From: Podarcis liolepis
Lineage: Eukaryota
Direction: 5' to 3' (one strand)
NCBI GenBank assembly: GCA_965112155.1
Contig: OZ218106.1
DNA: 64,000 bases
Shown here: in pieces, positions 1,206 through 63,062 of the stretch
Numbering within the stretch: position 1 is the stretch's first letter
Layout of the letters: each line of letters begins with the position of its first letter
Program-made: the position numbers and the translations under genes
Notes under the pieces: model-generated
What the model was told of the DNA's origin: nothing
Seen by the model: the letters and a program-made list of their open reading frames with translations, nothing else
Databases searched by the model: none

Positions 1206-3549
1206 AGCAGAAACTACACAGTCCAACTCAAACCCAATGTATTCTGAGAAATTAGCTCAAGATTTCTCCCCCCCCTCTCTCTGTGTGTGTGTGTGTTGAC
1301 CAGAACCGTATTCAAAAGTTAAGAGCATAACATTTTCAAATGAAAACTAGACATCAAGTAGTATTAGCAAGTAGTATTAGGAAATAGCAGATTCATAACC
1401 TTCTGGTGCTAGTGACAAAATAATTCATTGGCTTCCAGTCTGTTTCTATATGCAATTTGAAATGCAATTATCACCTTTAAAATCGTAAATGACTTGGGTA
1501 GAATACACTTGTGTATTTGGATGATTATAGTGTTGCTATTGTTCCTAACAATGTTTACTTGGAAACAATAATCAATATTTTTTAAGATCCCCATGGCATG
1601 TGAGTGCAATTTTTATTCCCTATTATTATGCATATATGTTAATGCCCCCAAACCTGTGTGTTAAATGTAATTTATACATAGTGGCGTTAACTTAATGCTA
1701 TTTGTCTGAAATATTCAGGATATATTATGTCCTCCTCCTGGCAAAGATTTCTTCAAGTTCAAGATGTCTTAACACATTAAAGAGTGGTAGAAAAGCATTT
1801 CAATTAGTTGGCAACCTGATCTTTTTAGAGACGTACCTTATTGTCTCATGCCCTGATTTTTTTTTCTTCCCCCTCCCCCCATCATCCTAATACTTTAGTC
1901 TTAGAGCAGGCAGGCAAACACATTTGTGAAAACAAAACAGCCTGAACTCAAATCAAGAGTGAAATTAAATGCTGGCAACCTTAACTGCCAAGGTCTACTA
2001 AGGTGGCAACCTCAGGGAAGGATTGTCATCATTTATGATGTTCAAGTAGCCAACATACTCCATTCTAAGCACTTGTTTACCACAGCAAGTTTCATGATCA
2101 AGATCAAAATACCTATTATAGCAGGGTCTGATCCCTTGGTGTGAGGGATGAATTCAGACAACAGTTCCCCCCACCCCCACCAAGAAGCATTGATTTTGGC
2201 AGTAGTGAAAATGAAGGTGGCACTAGATTGCCTACAGGGGTTCAGTGAATGGAGGGCTTTGTAGCAATCAAGCATGCAGGGAGGAAAGCCGCACTAATTC
2301 ACCTTGTCAAAAAGTAGGCAGCCTTTACAAACGTTGACCAAGTTTGTCCTAGATCTCCTTTTCCCATCACTTTTACAGAAATCCAACACAACTACTTACA
2401 TACCATCCAGAACAATAATCAAAATGTAAGCTGTTAAATGGACAAGAATACAGCAGAGTAACCTGTGAGCCATGTGATCTTTCTGTTTAAAAAAACAACA
2501 ACCTGATGAGAAACACACAGAATGCATCTAAGGGAAAATGTGTAGCTTTCAAGCTGTTACTTGCCCACTCTGCTTTTTGTAAATATTATGTCATAATGTG
2601 ACAAGCAAAGACTTCAGATCTGGGAGCAAGGGTCTTTTGATTGTGCTGCACTAATACCGTGGTATTTCAGTTGACCTGTAAGACATAACGATCAACTTAA
2701 AACAGTCCACTGGTAGTAGTAAAAATTCCTGTTCGTTTTCTAATGGAAATAATTCCTGTCCTTTTTCTAGTGATGATGGGAATTTATCTGTTTCAGGTTA
2801 GGATGTTTTGGAGGAGAGACAGCTAAAGCTAAAACAGTGGTTCTTTTAACATTCACAAACCAAAGCTAATTTGATTCATGGAAGACTTCTGCAACGTTGC
2901 AAAGGGTTTGTCTGAAGAGTTTCCTGCAGACTGAGAAGGCTACTATTGTGTTTTTTTGTCACCATAAAGGCTAAGCAGTAATTAGCACAAACATGCTTAA
3001 GTGATTCATCCCATCACTATTTCTGCATCCAGCCTAGTTGTGCATAATTTAATGCAAAACTACTCTTATTTCACCCTAAATGAATGGAAGAGCACGAAGA
3101 GTCAGCATTTCCATGCCTGCATGCTTCCCTGAACAAAACCACCTAACTTCCACCCATCCTCACAATATTGCATCAAGGAATTAGAACTGCTGGAAGCATT
3201 TGAACTGTAGAAGCTCATCTCAGCAAGTACTGTATGTAGAGTCTTTCCATCTTCCAGCACAAAGCCTTTCAAAATTAGCCTGAATGAGACTTCCAGTCCC
3301 CAACAAACAGAGCCCCCTAAGAAAGCTGAATTGGCTGCCATCACTCAGTTGTGGCAAAGGACCAGCTACATATTGGCACATGCCTTCTCTTCAGATGCCC
3401 AATGGAATGCCACCTGGGAAGCAAAAAAAGACCCTCTTGCAACAGTAGGAAATATGTCTACCCACTACTCTTACTTAATCCAAATAGGGGGGTTGCCTCT
3501 ATTATACTGTCTGTTTGGTCCAGGCATTATGAAAAAAGTGAGCTAAGAG

Positions 3550-9531: not shown

Positions 9532-11367
9532 CTCTAGAGATTAGGTTGGTGATTGTTAAATACTAAATTTCTAAGATGTTATATGAAACTGAAAACTATT
9601 TAAATAAGAATGATGATAAAACATTTTTATACCGTCCTTTCTCAAAATTGTTTTCAGGGTAGGTTATAGTGTTTAAAAAGCATACAAATACACAAAACTA
9701 CAAAACTCAGAACCTGTAATGAAGCTAGTTTAACAACTTTTTGTTCCATCTGTTTCCAATGGCAAGCGCTAGAGAGAAATAATACCAAAAAACAACCTTA
9801 CAAATTTGTAAATTAGAAAGGGTCAATCCACCATGCCCAGCTGATTTCTATAAAGTGCCACCCCTAATAAAAACACTGAGTAATGACTGCCACTTGGTTC
9901 TTCTTGTTTACAAATATAAATAAATAAGGATTAGAACAGAAAAATAAATTATGGCAAATACTGTTATCTGGGTGATAGCTATTTGTGTTAGTCACTCAAA
10001 AATTCTTTGTAGACCACTGCTGCAGGACTTTGTAGCAAAAAGGGGGAGAGTAACTGAGGTTCCCCCCTTAAGTTATTCAAATTAAATATAGATTCCCAAG
10101 TGCATGCAACGTTTGTTTATTGGATAAACTTTATCCCAAGGGAATTAAAAGGGAAACTGCAATGTCTGCTAAATATAGGCTAGTAAACTGATGTTAATTA
10201 CCTCAGATTTGGAGTAATTGGCCTTATAGCCAGATATTGATCCCAAACTGTCAAGCTTGTTCATGAGCAGTATAGTATAGCAGAAAGAAAATTCTCATGA
10301 CATACAAGACCAAGATCCATGTGAATACCAAGCTTGTGCCCAGTGTCAATGCTATAAAAATCCTTAATAACAAGGTTGCTCCCAAGGGAAATGGTTGAAG
10401 TGAGACAGGAGATGAGAAGTCTTACTTTGTGATCCTATAGAGATCATACAGGCAAGGTAGCAAATTAGAAACTATAGTAGGAGTTGTGCAGCTTGCTGCT
10501 ACAAAAAAAAATAGGTCCAAATCCTACACACACACACACTTTTATGTACCACCATTCTATGCAGTCAAAGGCTTTTTCTAGAGCTACCAAAACTATGGTT
10601 GATGTTTCAAGACCTTGACCATGTGGATTAGATTACAGTGTCTGTTAGTCATCACCCAGGCATAAAACTGGAGTTACTGACTGAATATAACTGCAAATTG
10701 TAACAATCTGTTGCTAGGCTAATATGGAGAAGCCTCTGGGAGGTAGAAGAAATCAATGTACCTTTTTAGAGGGCAAACACCTGATTGGGTGTGGAAATCC
10801 CAAATTAAAAATGAATACTGGTGTGAAGTTGTCTCCACACCCCTTCAGTCTCAGGTCACTTTCAGTTAAAAAGAAATTATATCACTGAAATGACATTTAT
10901 ACTGAACCAAAAAGTATGTGGAAAGAACCAAGTCCACTCTCACATTTAACTCTCCTTCTTCCTGCATTGCTATGTGGGCTTCAAAGCCAAAACCCTACCG
11001 ATTTTTTCAAACTTAGATCTTATTCTATTCTCCAAGCTTGAATAACCTTAACATACCTAAGATTTTGCAGGTACCTAGCATCTTGATCATAATAAAGCTG
11101 CATGGGATACCGCAATGGTTCTGGAATCCTGCATAGGCTATGTGATGCATGATCCATGGCACTGGGACACTGGCAAGTACATATATGGGACAGGCAGAAC
11201 ATATCCACATCTTTAAAGCATCCATATACGCATTAAGTTACCTGGTATAATCAATAAAGCCTCATTTAGTTTACTGTGGTTTTCCTCTCACAGATCTAAA
11301 ACTCCCAGCACCCTTAAACTACAGTTCCCAGGATTATTTGGGGAACTCATGTGCTTCCCCCAAAACA

Positions 11368-12877
11368 TGATACACCTGGAGTAGGAACCAGCAAGCCACT
11401 CCCCCATCCCTGCCAAGAAAACTCCATGGACAAAGACAACAGGCATATAAAAGTTATGACGCTGGAAGGTGAGCCCCTCAGGTCAGAAGGCATCCAACAT
11501 GCTACTGAGGAAGAGCGGAGGACAAGTACAAGTAGATTCAGAGCTGATGAAGCCGCTGGGCCAAAGCCAAAAGGTCGCTCAGTTGCGGATATGCCTGGAA
11601 GTGAAAGGAAAGTCCAATGCTGTAAAGAAAAATATTGCATAGGAACCTGGAATGTAAGAACCATGAACCTGGGTAAATTGGATGTGGTCAAAAATGAAAT
11701 GGCAAGAATAAATATTGACATCCTGGGCATCAGTGAACTAAAGTGGATGGGAATGGGCAAATTCAGTTCGAATGACCATCATACCTACTACTGCGGGCAA
11801 GAATCCCGTAAAAGAAATGGAGTGGCCCTCATAGTCAACAAAAGAGTGGCAAAAGCTGTACTGGGATGCAATCTCAAAAATGACAGAATGATCTCGATAC
11901 GAATCCAAGGCAGACCTTTTAACATCACAGTAATCCAAGTTTATGCACCAACTACCGGTGCTGAAGAAACTAAAATTGACCAATACTATGAAGACTTACA
12001 ACACCTTCTAGAAATGACACCAAAGAAGGATGTTCTTCTCATTATAGGGGATTGGAATGCTAAAGTAGGGAGTCAAGAGATAAAAGGAACAACTGGCAAG
12101 TTTGGCCTTGGAGTCCAAAATGAAGCAGGGCAAAAAGGCTAATAGAGTTCTGTCAAGAGAACAAGCTGGTCATCACAAACACTCTTTTCCAACAACACAA
12201 GAGATGACTCTACACATGGACATCACCAGATGGGCAGCATCGAAATCAGATTGATTATATTCTCTGCAGTCAAAGATGGAGAAGCTCTATACAGCCAGCA
12301 AAAACAAGACCTGGAGCTGACTGTGGCTCAGATCATCAGCTTTCTATAGTAAAATTCAAGCTTAAATTGCAGAGAGTAGGAAAAACCACTGGGCCAGTAG
12401 GATAAAATCTAAGTCAAATCCCTTATGAATACACAGTGGAAGCGAGATACAGGTTTAAGGATTTAGATTTGGTGGACAGAGTACCTAAAGAACTATGGAT
12501 GGAGGCTTATAACATTATACAGGAGGCAGCAACGAAAACCATCCCAATGAAAAGGAAATGCAAGAAAGCAAAGTGGCTGTCCAACGAGGCCTTACAAATA
12601 GTAGGGGAGAGAAGGCAAGCAAAATGTGAGGGAGATAGTGAAAGATACAGGAGATTGAATGTAGATTTAGCCTACATCCCAATCCCAAAGAAGGGCAGTG
12701 CCAAAGAATGCTCCAACTAACGCACAATTGCATTCATTTCACACGCTAGCAAGGTTATGCTTAAAATTCTACAAGGCAGGCTTAAGCAGTATGTGGACTG
12801 AGAACTCCCAAAAGTGCAAGCTGGATTTCAAAGGGACAGAGGAACCAGAGACCAAATTGCAAACATGTGCTGGATTA
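11368..12877 (+). mobile_element. BovB (RTE-clade) LINE, 5' part: APE endonuclease and start of RT region, defective
   Basis: ORF from ATG 11456 has GTWNVRTMN, DILGISELKW, IQVYAPT and IIGDWNAKVG, then after a +1 frameshift near 12135 YTWTSPDGQHRNQIDYIL and GADCGSDH. Closely matches the BovB ORF. Stops present, internal deletion near 12668, ends at GTRDQIAN. Confidence 0.97.
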
Positions 12878-14696
12878 AACACAAAGTGGCCATTTGCGAT
12901 CTGCCTAGTGAGATTAAATACCAACTAGCTGAAAGATAAAGAGAACAATAATATGCAACCTTGCTAAACTGTGTGCCACTTACTGTAAGCTCACCCTAAC
13001 TACTTTGCTATGCACAATAATCAATGGCTAGTAATGATACTGACCAAATGCACTTAACATTTCTGCCAGAGATTTGCAGCATGTATCAGAATGATGATGG
13101 GCCTTCCCAGCTTGCTTTATGGTGGCTTGTGGAGGTTGATCCAGCAGCTAAGGAATAAACTTGATCTCTGACTCATCCTCTTTAGTGACTAACTTTTATT
13201 TCGGAAAAGGTTGCAGCTGCTAAATCAGAGGAGGCCAGGATAGTTTGCTTCTTCTGCAATAAGCCACAACACTACTCTCTCTGTGTCTAAATGCTCAGTG
13301 CCAAATTGGAAAAAGTGCTGGATCCCAGTGGTATGCTGGAAAATAATGTGGGGTCTTTTTAAATAACTTGACCTCCCCAAGCTTCAGAGTATAGTACAAC
13401 GACCCCATGCTGCCAGTGAATATTGGCAGCATAGTCATGAGTCCTCATTCTACTTACATAAAGTTCAGAGTTAGGAAGAGGGAAGCTAGTGTCTACAGCA
13501 CCAAGGACTCTAAACAGGGCCCTCACTTCCATAAAAGACATTGGGAGTGTAAGTAAAACAAAGAAATCCAATCCAATCAGAAGATAAAGAAAGCTATTTC
13601 ACAGAAGCTGTACATCAGGTTTGGGGAACAATTTAGCCCTCCAGATGTTGTTGAACTCAACTCATATTAGCCCTAGCAAGCATGGCCAATGAATGGCCTT
13701 ACTAAATAGTCTCCACAGAGACATAATAATTTGGGCAGTGGAATTACTGACCTTGTTTCACCATTGTGTGGAAGTCTAAACTTACTGATACAGAATCAAG
13801 GCATGATTATAATGTCTAGAGTTGAACATGGTCTTCAGTTGGCACTTTGATCTCTTAAGTAAGTGCAAACTTTTAAAATTATGTTTTTAAAAAATCAAGG
13901 AAAGCAATTAGCCTACACTTGAAGACTGAAAACAGAACACTGGAAGCTACTTTTCCTACAAAATTAAGTGATAGCATATGCGCTGAGCAACTTGCTGTGC
14001 TTCCCAAGGGAGCTCTTCCCCATATGTTAGCTGGTTCTTTAGAGAACATGCTCAAAACACTGTTTGCTTCCAGAGAAACTTGCCACTGCTGCTACCTTAC
14101 AATTTGCTCTTGTTTTTCTTAGCTGCTCAAATTCTTGGGCTGTTTTGAGGCAAAGAATGATAACTATAGTGATTAATCTTTTTTAGTTGCAAAACTCTTA
14201 AATAAAGTGCAACGTGGCTGTTATTTTCATCACCCGCCTTCCCTTTTCTCCTGCCTACTCCATATTGCCCATCCACCAAACAACAGGCAAGTCCAGAAAT
14301 CTGATTAGCTGCTATAAACAGACATTCAAGCTCAGAGCTCCAGATTTGGTTATAGAAACAATAGAAGTGTTAACTCACAGTGGCATGCAACTGATTAACA
14401 AAGCCTTAGCTAAAGTTTTCAGCTAGAGATGGAGACAGAATTTACGGCTGCAAAAATATGTCGCTAGTTATTTCATGCTTATTAGCCATTTGTTTACATG
14501 GAATCTTTTCAAAATTTTGACTCACTGATTAGGATAAAATGTTCACCTACTGGAGATGTAAAGCTGCCAATTTAGAAAAGCCAAAGGACATAGTCCCTGG
14601 AATCCATCAAATGTAATTCTTAATAGTCTGAAAGCTTTCGAAATTGCATTAATTCAGTTACCACAATATTTTATACCTCGTCCGGCCCAGCCTTAC

Positions 14697-31426: not shown

Positions 31427-32044
31427 CTGAAGACAGTGTCAACACTTTTAAATATTCTGACAGTGTATGAAACTGCAGCGATCACTCTGCTTCCTGTGCC
31501 CTTCAGTACCAGTTCCCCTAATCTACACTGTCCCATCCCACACAGATTTTAATACACTCGACATTTCTCAAAACAGGGGTGGGTAACCAATTACTATCCA
31601 GTTGTTGCTGGACTACAATTCCCATCGTCCCTAACAAATAGCATGCTGGCTGGGCTGATGGGAGTTGTAGTTCAATTGGCATGGGAAGGGTAATAAGTTT
31701 CACACCCTTGCTTTACACCCCATGTGCATACTGTATCTGCCAACTGCATATGATGAAGTAGGCGATAGTCTACAGAAACCAACACCACAAGATACAACAA
31801 CACCATTCCTCCTGGTACTTGTAGACTTCTGATTTCACCCCACTGCATTTGGGCTAAAGGAGCTGCACGGTGAGAGGCACATTAGCTTCTGCTAAGCTCA
31901 ATTTTTTGGTGCATTTAAAGCTGTTAACACCGTATTTGCATTAGGAACATGAAAGCCCTTTAGAACTTGAATGGAGAACCTCAGGCCTGGAGCCTGAATG
32001 CAGCCCTCCAGGCCACTCTGTCTGGTCCTTTGGATTCTTTTCAG

Positions 32045-33485: not shown

Positions 33486-33624
33486 CAGGTGTTGTGAGCC
33501 TTTGGCCTTCCAGATGTTGCTGAACTACAGCTTCCATCATCCACAGCCATTGGCCATTCTTGCTGGGACTGATGGGAGTTGCAGTTCGGCAACTTCCAGA
33601 GGGCCAAAAGTGTCCCCACATCTA
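33486..33624. mobile_element. Palindromic hAT-type MITE
   Basis: TTTGGCCTTCCAGATGTTGCTGAACTACAGCTTCCATC...GATGGGAGTTGCAGTTCGGCAACTTCCAGAGGGCCAAA forms a long inverted repeat. Confidence 0.75.
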
Positions 33625-33931: not shown

Positions 33932-35239
33932 AGTTTAGGGGAAATGTAATGTGGCAAACAGCCATTGGGGGGTTCAGATGTCAGGTGCTAGACCCTGGCT
34001 CCAGGTTTTGGGAGACCTTTGGGCAAGATGCTTTAGGTGCCCCCACCCCCAGTGGGTCCTCCTAATCCCACCTGATATCACCACCCATTCATTTACTCTC
34101 TCCACTAGGGCCTCCTTTCACACCATTGCCCCCAAGGACAGAACACAAGACAAGGCACCTTCTCCTTCCTCCTGTTCCTGAATGCCTGCTCAGAGAGGGC
34201 AGATGAACAAGCAGCAACAGGAAGGACAAGATGCCTCCTTACTCCCTCAGCGGCATCAACAGGGGCTACAGAAATCAGGGACTTGTGTGATGCTACTTCT
34301 TCCTATCAGTATTCATAGCAAGGTCACAACTCAGACACTGGGAATCCCTGAGCCTTGTCCATTTATAGGCCTATTATCACCACCAATAAGACATTCAGAA
34401 TTGTCAGTTTCAACCCCCTGCCGATATCTAAGCTTGCCTAGGGCTGCATGCAGATAGGCAGAACTGGAAAGTCCTCCATTTATTTTACTTGCAGTTTTAT
34501 GAATGCACACTAACTAAAAAATCTTGCAGCTGACTGATTTTGCAATATGCAAGTGTTGTGACAAGCGTACCACACCCAGACAAGCCAGCCAGGCAAGAAA
34601 GCTGGGATTAAGATAATTTGTGCCATACGGGTTGTGCTGCCCACTCTCTGGCACAATTCAACAGTTTACTGGGAGAGCCACAGTTGAAGTTGGAAGGTAT
34701 GAACCATTCAAAATACTGTCTCTACTTGGGGGGGGGGGTGCGATTTGCAACCATTATTCCGGATGTGCTTGACATGATTGCATCTGTATTTGTCTTTATG
34801 GGGCATTTCAGGTTTTCTTCCTAAATCTAGTCTCTAATTTTCAAACACCCATCTTGACTACAACTTCCATCATCCCTGACCAATGTGTGACTGGGGCTGA
34901 TGGAAGTTGCAGTCCAAAACATCTATAGGACACCAGGTTGCGGGAAGCAGATACACTAGCTACAAACAAACCATCACAGAGTAATGTATAAAACATTATT
35001 AAAAAATTACTACATATAGAATCTTAATAGTGCCGTCCACTACAATTTGGGTAGCAGTATTTTTAGGGAGACCAGAATATTTAGGATCTGCTCCACCTAG
35101 TGAGATTCAGGCAATGCCAGGCTATGTTTTTCAGACAATTCTCTCACAGCTTAGCAAAATCTCAGCTGGCACTGTCACTGGATATAATTTAATAAGGATC
35201 CTTTGTCTCTGCCTGCAGTCTCCGGGTATATAGCACACT

Positions 35240-43264: not shown

Positions 43265-44169
43265 CTAGATTCCCATCAGCCTCAAACAGCATGGTCAATG
43301 GTCAGGGATGATGGGAGCTGTAATCCAGGAACATCTGAAGGACCACAAGTTCCTCATCCTTGCCTTAAAGGCTAAACAAACCAGTAGCCTGGGCTATTTC
43401 TGGTTCAGCTTATACTATACATGTAAGCAATTGCTCGTGTAAGCAGTAAGTCCTCTTTATTAACTCTCATTTGACCACAATTAAATATGTTGATGATATC
43501 ATGCTACAAATGTTTCTACCATTTTCAGTATGTTTGCTAAAGCAAGAAGACTCCGCTTGGCTATTAGTAACCTGGAAGTCCTCCTCCACCCACTCCAAGT
43601 AAGAATCCACCAACGGTGTGTTATTTTATCCTTTTAACCCTCCTTGAGAAAGTATTTTGTTAGATTTTCCTCACATTCAAAAATACAATAGACATACTAT
43701 GAAGGAGAGGAAACAGTACTTCCTCAGATAAATCATATGCAATTATATATTCAGTAGGAAAAGTAAACCCTGTAATTTTCTAAAGACAGAGAGATGTGGT
43801 GCTTGCTGAAACTCCTTTATTGAGGCTCAGCACTGCCTTCCACAATAGGCACAGTGTTTGAATTATAAGAAAGCTGTAAAGACTTCCTCCAAGGGTTAAC
43901 TCACTTAGGAGGCCACACTTACATGGGGCCAAAGCCATGTGGTCTGTAGTATGTGGGAGCCCAAGAAGTAAGTGTGTGGTTTGTGGTAGCTCAGAAAATG
44001 TGGACACAAGTATGCAATAACCACTTGGCCTGAACAAGAGGTCTCCACCTGCACCCATTCTTGCTTTCCAGAGAAGACCTTGCCCCACCTCTCACTAGAC
44101 AGGATCCAAGGAGTGTGAGACAACAGCATCTTATAGCAAATACCATAAAGGAGAATGTGTGTGATGCAT

Positions 44170-59154: not shown

Positions 59155-59187
<33 letters not shown>
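59155..59187. repeat. (GT)n microsatellite
   Basis: Read directly. Confidence 0.95.
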
Positions 59188-59190
<3 letters not shown>

Positions 59191-59225
59191 TAAAACTTCG
59201 TATCTACAAATAAACTACTCATTTT

Positions 59226-60105
59226 CACTTTTTTTTATCTAAAGAGTATTTATTTTATTCTTCATTGCTTCCAAGAAATAACACTGGGGGGAAACCCAGA
59301 GAGGGGTACATACAGCGACTGTGGTAAAGCAGAAGTGAATACCGTGAATGAGGAACAAAAGTAGAACTGTCTAAGGTCCCCAGATGTTGTTGGACTACAA
59401 CTCCCATCATCCCTGAGCTCTGGCCTTGCTACCTAGAGGTGATGGGAGTTGTAGTCCAACAACATCTGGGGACCCACAGGTTGAGAAAGGCTGGTCTAAG
59501 CAACGACAATTAAACTAAAATACCAGCAGAAGGCATATCCTTACTTCTTTGAGTTTTAAACTGAGAAATCCCCTTGGAATTCTAACAGATTTTGTCTCAA
59601 ATACAGACTAACAAGAATGAAGAGGAAGACTACAATACAACAACTTTCACTACAGAACGCTGTACACACCTTCCCTCAAAACCCCCTTAAACCATGGTGT
59701 CTTATTTGCTTGCTTGCTGAGCTTGCCTATGGAGAGGGACATAAGATATTTTCCTTTATCCAGTCTCTATTGTATGTCTGGTATGTCTAAGTATCAGCAC
59801 AATAAACAAGGCAGCTGAGGTGAGCCAAGTCATCAATGAAATCAAATTACTGGCTAATATATGTAATAATTGAAGGCTTGTTAGGATTCATTCTCTTCAG
59901 GTGCTCTTCATATATTTTACAGGCACCTTCCATGCATTCATTCACAGACTCATAATCAGCCTAAGTCCTGCCTTCTGGTCGTTTGGTAGTTGAACAAGCA
60001 AAATTGTGTGAGACACGGCGACTCGTTCCGTTCAGCTCAGGAGCGAAGCACAAAATTCAACGACTTCTCTACCACAATTCACCGCGACCATCAGAAAGCA
60101 CTACT
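59226..60105 (-). pseudogene. ERH: Processed (retro)pseudogene of enhancer of rudimentary homolog; CDS remnant 60016 to 59702
   Basis: Manual minus-strand translation: (V)[99 protein letters not shown], matching the 104-aa ERH protein end to end. ATG changed to GTG, 2 frameshifts, 3 internal stops, no introns. 3' UTR has GGTGTGTACAGCGTTCTGTAGTG, AATAAA (59249-59254) and an A8 tail (59229-59236). 16-bp TSD at 59210-59225 and 60106-60121. Confidence 0.97.
59376..59493. mobile_element. Palindromic hAT-type MITE inserted in the ERH retrocopy 3' UTR
   Basis: Perfect 31-bp arms GTCCCCAGATGTTGTTGGACTACAACTCCCATC / GATGGGAGTTGTAGTCCAACAACATCTGGGGAC. Right TIR GGTTGAGAAAGGCTG. Flanking duplication GTCTAAG at 59369-59375 and 59494-59500. 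Left TIR lost. Confidence 0.85.
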
Positions 60106-63062
60106 ATAAACGACTCATTTTAAAGCAATGCTAGTTGAAACTGAAGTATGTTGATTCTCTGACCTCACTGAACAAGTTTGTTATGAGGTTTAAAGCACCA
60201 CAGAAGAACCTGTAATCACACAGCATTCTTGTCCTCACTCAGGGTTTCTCCTGCTACAAGCACCTAGGGTAGAACAACCTGAAGTCAAACAAGAGGATGA
60301 TGGGCAAAACCAAACACCTGATGAAGTACTTTCATCAGGCCCTCTGACTGGACCACTTGAGCATCCTTATGTATATCAACTTGACAATCACTTCCTAATT
60401 CTTCTGATTAAGAGGGCTTTTTAAAAAAATCATCACTCATATAGCATTTTTAATGTGCTACGGGCTTTAGCATCCTTGTTTCATTCATCCCACAACCACA
60501 GTGGGAGAAGAATGATGCTCAGTAAGCAAGGGAACCAGCTATAGAGGGAAGAATGGGCTTCAACCCTCTCAATATTTCAAGGCAGGGTGTTGAGACCCCA
60601 CCCAATATTGAGGGAACTCCCATCCCCCGCTGCCCCCGGGCAAACACCAGCACACCAGGCAGAAGGGCTGGGAAAGCAATTTTCACCCTCCACACCCCAT
60701 GCCACAATCGCCAGTGTGTCTCGAAAGCTGCCCACACATCCTGGCAGGTGTGGCCCAATAAGGGGTGGGGCGCCACATGTGTGCTGCTATGCACACAGGA
60801 CAGCCCCCCGGTGTTGTGCCCCACTCTGTGTGCCTGCCTCAAGTCAGTGTCGGAGGTGCAATTTGGATTCAGCTTTCCCAGATCACAGATGTGTGTCCAT
60901 CAGTTCACTTGTGGTTTCAAGGAAGCAACAACAACAACAATCTGTAGGGCAATGTATCTTCCCCACAATGCTTTCCACCCTATAAATACAGTTTGCTCTT
61001 CAGGACTAAACATAGATGGTGGCGACATCAGCAAAACAAGATGGCACCATAACCTGTTGCTCTTTTAACGTTTGGAAATAAGGCACATTGTTAATGTCTA
61101 AACACAACACGGCACTTGAATTTCTGCTGCCCCAGATAATTTGCAATGCGCAAGACACTTTCCAGCTTCCTCACTTATTTCAGTGGAGAAGCTGCACAGC
61201 TCTAGGAACGCAAAGCTGCAACACAGAAGCTCCACAGAAGTGGAGCTCTGTTTCACTGCAAATGTGTTTATAACTGTAGTTTAACTCAAATATATGCCAG
61301 TAAGACTCTAGATGTACAATGTATCTATGAATTACCTATTTCATTCCCTGCAGTTAACGCAATTGTTTCTCCTTCATTGTTTTTGTTGTCCTACCTTTGC
61401 CATGTAATTGGTAAGGAATAACAGTATTACAGGTCACCCCGACGTCTGCCGAGTGGGAACAAGATTCCAGGGTCTTTGCTCTCCACCAGGGTTTGTGCTC
61501 CTTTGGAATGAGGCATGGCAGAGACTGGAGTGTCTTTAATATGGTTTGTTTACACATATTTACACCTGAGTTTAGGTGGAGGAAGTGTAGACCACAGGGG
61601 CATAGTATGGGGGGCTGTGGCCCTGAGCGTGAACCAGACACCCCAGCACAGCATGGCCCGGGGCTTCCCTCTGCTCACTGAGAGCCATGTCAGCTGGTGG
61701 GGTCCCCCCTGTGTAGGCAGGCAGGGGGCTCAGCTTAGGCCCACGTGGCTCTGGTGGGGTCGTTCTAGCGTCAGTGGCTAGGCTGTCACCCCACCCCACC
61801 CCCCACCTAGCACATGGCTGCCCCAGGCACCAGCAACCGATGCTATGCAACTGGTAGAACATTATATCCCAATAGTGTCTTCTGTTGCTCTCTTCATAGC
61901 TTCAGCCCGCTTGAGTCCAATCTCTCAGTGCTGCCTCTCCCAACCAGCCCCACATGATGTCCTGCCCCTCCCTTCTTCTCAAAAACCCTTGCTCCAAAAG
62001 CAACTCAAGCCTGGTGTAAAAGGGCATCTTTTTTCCTGTGGTGACATCATGCCCCTCTGTAACCCTGGCAACTTTCCCCTCCCAACTCTGCTATTGTCTT
62101 TTGCTAACTAACACACAGCTAGGGGAGGAACTCCACCCTGCTCCTTGTCTGACACTGAATGTGCCACCTTTTCTCAGGGTAATGACTGCCATCAGCCGTC
62201 TTTGTTCTTTCATGGCATCTGTCAGCTGATCTCTTGAACAGGAGAACAGTGTATTCTTACACTGCACATGTTCCCTTAATACTCCAATACTCCCTTAAAA
62301 CTCCAGATATTAATTACATCCTACCATTTGCTAAATCAAGAATTTTGAGGCATCTGGGCCCTCTCTCATACATTCATAATAATAATTTCATCTTCCTGGG
62401 GGCTTATATCAAAGTAACTCCAGTAGCAGACACTAGGGTCACTATAAAAAGTCTTTATTTTCATACGCAACCTTTTCAGGATTCCTTGACTCTATCCACC
62501 TGATAGTGACAGAGTACACATGACTCTGTATTTTATTTATTTAGGCAGAAATTGCATTTTCATTTCCCTTCCTTTCAATCTTTTAATTAAATCTTTCAGG
62601 AAACAAAAACAAAAAGTTGTGGATGTCTGCATTTCCACCCTCGAACGAGCATCTTAGGTTCCAGGACACAGAGTGCATTGCACATTCTGATCAGGCCATT
62701 TCCATTGTACTTAGGAGTGGGGAGTTTAAAATTCATGAATGTTGCAAGGGAACGGACAGCGTGTCCACATTGTACAGCCTTTAACATGTGCAGAACTCTG
62801 TGATCATAGCAGCATGTGAGGTGGTAGTTTAATGATCTGCAGCTATAGCATTTATTCAAAGCTTTATGGGGGAGGCATAATTATGTAATAAAAATCCTGT
62901 TTCCCTAGTATTCTCCCTCTTCCAAATGAATAATATATTCTGCTGCAGTGGGGCTTTTTAGGATTGCCAGTGGCTAACCCCCTTTGCATTATGCTTGCTG
63001 TCAACTTCCTTCAGCAGGAGAAAGCCACAGATCACACCTCATGTGCAAGCAGCTGTTTAACC

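Follow-up and report, generated by a model that had tools for sequence, protein, structure and literature searches.

A processed pseudogene of ERH with an L1-type target site and a nested hAT-like MITE

Introduction

Human ERH is a single four-exon gene with a 315-nt coding sequence (CDS) and has two pseudogenes, ERHP1 (7q34) and ERHP2 (6p12.1) (PMC10605862). The role of ERH in the Microprocessor, described in the literature, is background here and has no bearing on a dead copy. Retrocopies are reported to be scarcer outside mammals, with 404 in Anolis against thousands in primates (PMC5470649), and 45-90% of vertebrate retrocopies are without intact open reading frames (ORFs; PMC13320880). 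The hallmarks of L1 are A-tail remnants and target-site duplications (TSDs; PMC5470649), and its target is TT/AAAA; the signature described for Bov-B in squamates is a TTT that precedes the TSD by about 10 nt (PMC13295347). Squamate genomes, for their part, are described as richer in CR1, BovB and L2 (PMC6050309). Among the papers listed for ERH pseudogenes and for squamate retrocopies, supplementary retrocopy tables apart, none was seen to name the locus described below.

This locus lies in a window of 64,000 nt, the whole stretch of DNA that was analysed. We read it, with a probability of about 0.93, as a processed pseudogene of ERH mRNA. It was likely produced in the germline, through target-primed reverse transcription of the L1 type, and has likely had no function from then on.

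Anatomy of the copy and its parent gene

A first-pass annotation of the window had proposed an intronless ERH copy with 5' UTR, CDS, 3' UTR and AATAAA between 59210 and 60121. The ERH match was indeed found, as a hit to the Pfam family ER (PF01133) at 59742-59990 on the minus strand (E=1.1e-26) with three stops within it, and alignment to the spliced exons of the parent gene recovered each of the proposed parts. The copy itself spans 60105-59226 on the minus strand, the limits of the annotation being the outer edges of a 16-bp TSD. Along the minus strand, the order is TTT, TSD, 5' UTR, CDS remnant, 3' UTR, two overlapping AATAAA motifs, A8, three bases and the second TSD:

60106..60121, minus strand: 5' copy of the 16-bp TSD, with TTT directly before it (TTT/AAAA site)
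60017..60104, minus strand: ERH 5' UTR, from parent exon 1, starting at L007:2964; base 60105 left unassigned
59701..60016, minus strand: disabled ERH CDS, from alignment to the parent's spliced exons
59502..59700, minus strand: proximal part of the ERH 3' UTR, with a 14-nt deletion near 59668
59494..59501, minus strand: left copy of the 8-bp MITE target site, which the 3' UTR of the parent has once
59376..59493, minus strand: palindromic hAT-like MITE of 118 bp (family length 138 bp, 40-nt arms)
59369..59375, minus strand: right target-site copy of the MITE, of which 7 of 8 nt remain
59237..59368, minus strand: distal part of the ERH 3' UTR, with two overlapping AATAAA at 59259-59249
59226..59236, minus strand: A8, a putative tail remnant (59236-59229), followed by GTG
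59210..59225, minus strand: 3' copy of the 16-bp TSD

A six-frame PF01133 search of the same genome gave six matches among seven scored candidates, which fall into four loci, with one match each in the window (contig C9) and on C21 and two pieces each on C3 and C1; searched at the DNA level, the window copy returned the same four. The parent is the ERH gene on C1 of assembly G000, with an intact open frame of 104 aa in four exons (L007 2964-3055, 4393-4480, 4867-4987 and 8866-about 9330). Its introns of 1337, 386 and 3878 nt, all three GT-AG, lie after Met1, in Gly31 and in Val71, the same positions and phases as in human ERH (PMC10605862). The gene thus has the marks of the ERH family, a 104-aa protein with the Pfam ER domain and the expected intron positions, and compared with the ERH chain 1w9g of the PDB it is identical at 39/39 residues in exon 3 and 32/33 in exon 4. 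The parental gene carries introns, as the annotation had stated for the vertebrate gene, and lies elsewhere, being neither intronless nor syntenic with the window. Beside it, head-to-head and with start codons about 940 nt apart, a ZIP zinc-transporter gene on the minus strand runs from about L007:2109 upstream to L011:113, which we take to be SLC39A9.

All three exon junctions are precisely fused in the copy, at 60014/60013, 59927/59926 and 59806/59805, with 23/24, 22/24 and 22/24 nt identical to the parent. Overall identity to the parent is 91.3% (K2P 0.093 over 608 gap-masked columns), and the homology ends at the transcript ends. Between 57 and 63 kb no homology to parent introns or flanks surrounds the copy, apart from the MITE family, and for the first ~400 nt of the upstream flank the 40 candidates scored included no further match. 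Segmental duplication was considered and rejected on these two grounds, the lack of parent intron or flank at the locus and the uniqueness of the upstream flank.

At the 5' end the copy agrees with RNA read ends. The 1458 parent RNA reads concerned run a median of 48 nt past 60055, a figure that adapters could inflate, to about L007:2966; the copy begins at L007:2964, within about 2 nt of them if the reads are free of adapter. Full length at the 5' end is thereby supported. The 3' end is more complex. A poly(A) tail had been annotated, and a run of eight A is present; three of these are, however, encoded in the genomic sequence of the parent as well, and the GTG that follows corresponds to the parent's next bases but one and is possibly templated, so that the expansion of a templated run may account for part of this 'tail'. 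The ERH retrocopy on C3, in which a tail remnant stands at the same position, supports a true poly(A) site at this point. The annotation had further regarded the locus as a record, in a lizard, of the ends of the ERH transcript; a lizard is plausible as the source, and for the 5' end such a record is supported. The 3' end is one transcript end, the proximal poly(A) site in common with the C3 copy, and not the sole one, since a parent RNA contig of run X15 continues 926 nt beyond it. Another parent ERH contig of this run has 893 nt ahead of exon 2, and the two contigs hint at a longer 3' UTR and at a retained intron 1 or an alternative 5' end.

A Pfam scan took in 144 of the window's 192 ORFs that measure at least 70 aa from stop to stop; it revealed no host gene, and its sole match was an ORF of LINE type. 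Short exons would escape such a scan, and the copy may lie within an intron. This ORF, at 11318-12142 on the plus strand, is a 274-aa LINE 5' fragment with an endonuclease/exonuclease/phosphatase domain (E=6e-11), presumably Bov-B/RTE-like. A (GT)16 microsatellite lies at 59155-59187, 23 nt beyond the 3' TSD, and about 60520-60810 the window holds an old dispersed repeat with 68-84% identity to 40 other places.

Coding lesions and decay

The loss of the start codon, two frameshifts and three stops that had been annotated were each located. The start is changed from ATG to GTG at 60016; the frame is shifted by -1 nt in codon 10 (about 59988) and by +1 nt at codon 92 (about 59744); and in-frame stops interrupt codons 19 (TAG, 59963-61), 57 (TAA, 59849-47) and 77 (TAG, 59789-87). 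The stop codon carries an extra nucleotide (+1), and codons 50-53 show a +3/-3 change that is in frame on balance. The longest ORF with an ATG within the copy has 51 aa, and the longest in the ERH frame 28 aa.

Substitutions in the copy comprise 14 non-synonymous changes at 202 sites and 6 synonymous changes at 62 sites, a pN/pS of 0.72 that does not differ from neutrality (p=0.44), with low power at 20 changes, and the decay looks neutral from these counts; the parent branch holds only three changes, all at third positions. A ratio below 1 could point to a once-functional retrogene that died later, but 0.72 is not different from 1, and this history, like that of a DNA-level duplicate of another retrocopy discussed below, is highly improbable. 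The copy shows none of the features by which functional retrogenes are recognised, neither an intact ORF nor expression nor purifying selection.

Target site and mechanism of retroposition

The two copies of the TSD are identical at 15 of 16 positions, whereas only 38 of 2,000,000 random local pairs of 16-mers match at 15 or more. The insertion site is an exact TTT/AAAA and thus of the L1 type, TT/AAAA. Before the TSD, TTT occurs only at -1 to -3 and at -17 to -19; the Bov-B Tn-TA signature, a TTT about 10 nt ahead of the TSD, is absent from the site.

The copy arose by retroposition; that an element of the L1 clade carried it out is what we infer from the sequence of one target site. The same processed pseudogene could instead be the work of a different LINE, whether Bov-B/RTE, L2 or CR1, as the dominance of CR1, BovB and L2 in squamate genomes would lead one to consider (PMC6050309). 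Bov-B TSDs likewise begin with A after T (PMC13295347), the ERH retrocopy on C21 has a TTT 8-10 nt ahead of its TSD, and the window contains the endonuclease ORF at 11318-12142. Pfam searches of this genome for L1 ORF1 (PF02994, PF17490) gave no match, although the control genomes gave none either. The exact TTT/AAAA without a T-run at about -10 nevertheless argues against these elements, as does the combination of a TSD with a putative poly(A) remnant, which is typical of L1, while CR1 appears to recognise its own RNA only (PMC5470649). A non-L1 LINE is therefore an unlikely source, albeit one that deserves consideration.

Under the preferred reading, that of L1-type retroposition, a LINE ORF2 protein would have bound, in trans, an ERH mRNA that was already spliced and polyadenylated, nicked the DNA at TT/AAAA and, with the tail as the site of priming, reverse-transcribed the message as far as its 5' end. 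The promoterless copy would have been inserted and left to neutral decay, and later a hAT-like MITE would have entered its 3' UTR and afterwards lost its right end.

Expression

The raw RNA runs X23 and X21 come from an unspecified tissue of organism C, a relative, and about 12% of one and 6% of the other were read. Four diagnostic sites, 59748, 59777, 59801 and 59802, were used, at which the copy of organism C retains the base of the window. In run X23 the parent base was found in 83/83, 101/101, 100/100 and 100/100 reads at these sites, and in run X21 in 384/385, 502/502, 683/683 and 681/683. With the parent base in 99.7-100% of reads, the read cover of the copy consists of cross-mapped parent reads, and no read depth was seen in the unique flanks of the copy in either run.

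Run X15 yielded one contig of 210 nt (depth 3.9, 1 mismatch) with the copy's own alleles at 59946-60124, so that its end lies 3 nt beyond the 5' TSD, and a further contig of depth 2.3 in the flank; parent contigs have depths of 191-216. Carry-over of DNA would explain both low-depth contigs, and trace transcription of the copy remains compatible with them. The locus might on this account be dead as a protein gene yet give rise to small amounts of a non-coding RNA that acts, for instance, as a decoy or hairpin source. The contig that reaches past the TSD with pseudogene alleles would fit such a role, as would the 8 CpGs that the copied exon 1 has against 10 in the parent, and the MITE hairpin with its 40-bp arms. 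Against this stand the two raw-read runs, where at most 0.3% of reads lack the parent base at the diagnostic sites, the flank contig, whose depth fits DNA carry-over, an Rfam search of 57-62 kb with 0 matches, and the private divergence of the copy, which at 4.8% is as high as that of the other two retrocopies (4.4% and 3.0%). A non-coding role is accordingly very unlikely. A more elaborate version, in which the CpG-rich 5' end of the copy would start its transcription in some tissue and the MITE hairpin would serve as a small-RNA source or decoy feeding back on ERH, a Microprocessor cofactor, draws at most on the one depth-3.9 contig and must be considered more doubtful still.

Other ERH retrocopies in the genome

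Besides the window copy on C9, the genome contains ERH retrocopies on C3 and C21, three in all. The C3 copy (L008:3810-4812; G000 C3:~120586809-120587811, plus strand) is 5'-truncated at codon 2 and about 6.5% from the parent; its Pfam match is without stops, and at codon 44/45 it carries an insert of ~319 nt that begins with TG, ends with CA and has a short duplication, resembling a solo LTR. The C21 copy (L009:~2570-3280; G000 C21, minus strand) lies about 9.4% from the parent; it retains part of the 5' UTR and is broken by stops and frameshifts, its poly(A) point comes about 10 nt sooner, and the TTT before its TSD of about 11 bp is Bov-B-like. From codon 91 to position +6 of the 3' UTR, the C3 and C21 copies have in common a non-CpG I91T and, next to it, a change of two bases in the 3' UTR, both absent from the parent and the window copy.

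The window copy in turn agrees with the C21 copy against the parent and the C3 copy at six sites, three of them non-CpG. This agreement is what would speak for a DNA-level duplicate; however, a parent that changes over time would also leave shared sites in older copies, and the window copy has its own TSD, unique flanks and a 5' end longer than those of the C3 and C21 copies. Ancestral haplotypes, gene conversion or mere chance may lie behind the conflict among the shared sites.

Orthologues and age

Orthologous contigs span the 5' junction of the insertion in all five organisms examined (A-E); none has an empty site, all five having been picked as carriers of the sequence. The codon-10 frameshift is present in 5/5, and the codon-19 stop in the four for which that codon could be read (A, B, D and E); the codon-77 stop is absent in C, which indicates that the lesions were gathered stepwise. 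The contigs of A and B have an additional 5-nt deletion at 59741-59745 that the window lacks, so that the locus is still decaying. The orthologous contigs differ from the window by 0.4-1.3%, and the insertion should thus be several times older than the splits among the five organisms.

Divergence was counted in a gap-masked projection of 500 columns, which leaves out every site that lies 4 nt or less from a gap, together with the 5' UTR parts missing in the C3 or C21 copy; a count of 42 private changes from a four-way MAFFT alignment was rejected as inflated by misaligned gap regions. The private substitutions in these columns number 24 in the window copy, 22 in C21, 15 in C3 and 13 in the parent, the divergence of the window copy having a 95% interval of 3.1-7.1%. 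Dating by divergence, as the first-pass annotation had proposed, places the insertion at an estimated 24 My (16-36), as calculated from the 4.8% and a rate of 1.98e-9 per site per year borrowed from Podarcis muralis (PMC8760935), the taxon being assumed.

The nested MITE

The insert at 59376-59493 is missing from the parent, the C3 and C21 copies and parent RNA. Its 40-nt arms are 95% complementary, forming a palindrome, and its right terminal repeat has gone through a 21-nt deletion. In a genome search, all 40 scored places out of 790 candidates, its own copy included, were 97-100% identical. Eleven other copies measure about 138 bp between terminal repeats, and in nine of these the 8-bp TSDs match at 7-8 of 8 positions. 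The ends are short terminal inverted repeats starting with CAG and ending with CTG. With these repeats, an 8-bp TSD, a high copy number and no ORF, the element has the characters of a hAT MITE, the pattern of TSD and terminal repeats being one that we take to be hAT.

The nested MITE differs from other copies at 1-3 of 118 sites, and its insertion is therefore younger than the retrocopy. It is likely common to organisms D and E, whose contigs extend 22-23 nt from the UTR into the MITE, under the 31-letter matching threshold. Five older relatives of the family, 72-80% identical, lie in the window at 13641-13688, 31598-31675, 33510-33596, 34856-34940 and 43271-43337.

Meaning and comparison with known systems

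The 118-bp MITE, the 16-bp TSD and the two further retrocopies on C3 and C21 were absent from the first-pass annotation. The locus is of interest as a clean, well-preserved retroposition of an mRNA at a target site of L1 type, outside the mammals and in a genome said to be dominated by other LINEs, and as a presence/absence marker that carries a younger marker, the MITE, nested within it. Together with the C3 and C21 copies it preserves an older state of 13 sites of the ERH mRNA and the proximal poly(A) site. In exon 2 its identity to the parent reaches 97%, which can mislead the mapping of reads or the design of primers. Nothing new on the function of ERH follows from the copy.

The nested element resembles the MITEs of the hAT superfamily in its CAG...CTG terminal inverted repeats and 8-bp TSDs, and differs from them in that this copy has lost its right terminus. 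ERHP1 and ERHP2 in humans are likewise copies of a four-exon ERH gene, but of independent lineage. As in the vertebrate L1 processed pseudogenes described so far in the cited sources, fused exons, a putative A-tail remnant, a TSD under 20 bp and a TT/AAAA site occur together with the lack of an intact ORF (PMC5470649, PMC13295347, PMC13320880), and the window copy is a further case of a well-known kind, a textbook processed pseudogene.
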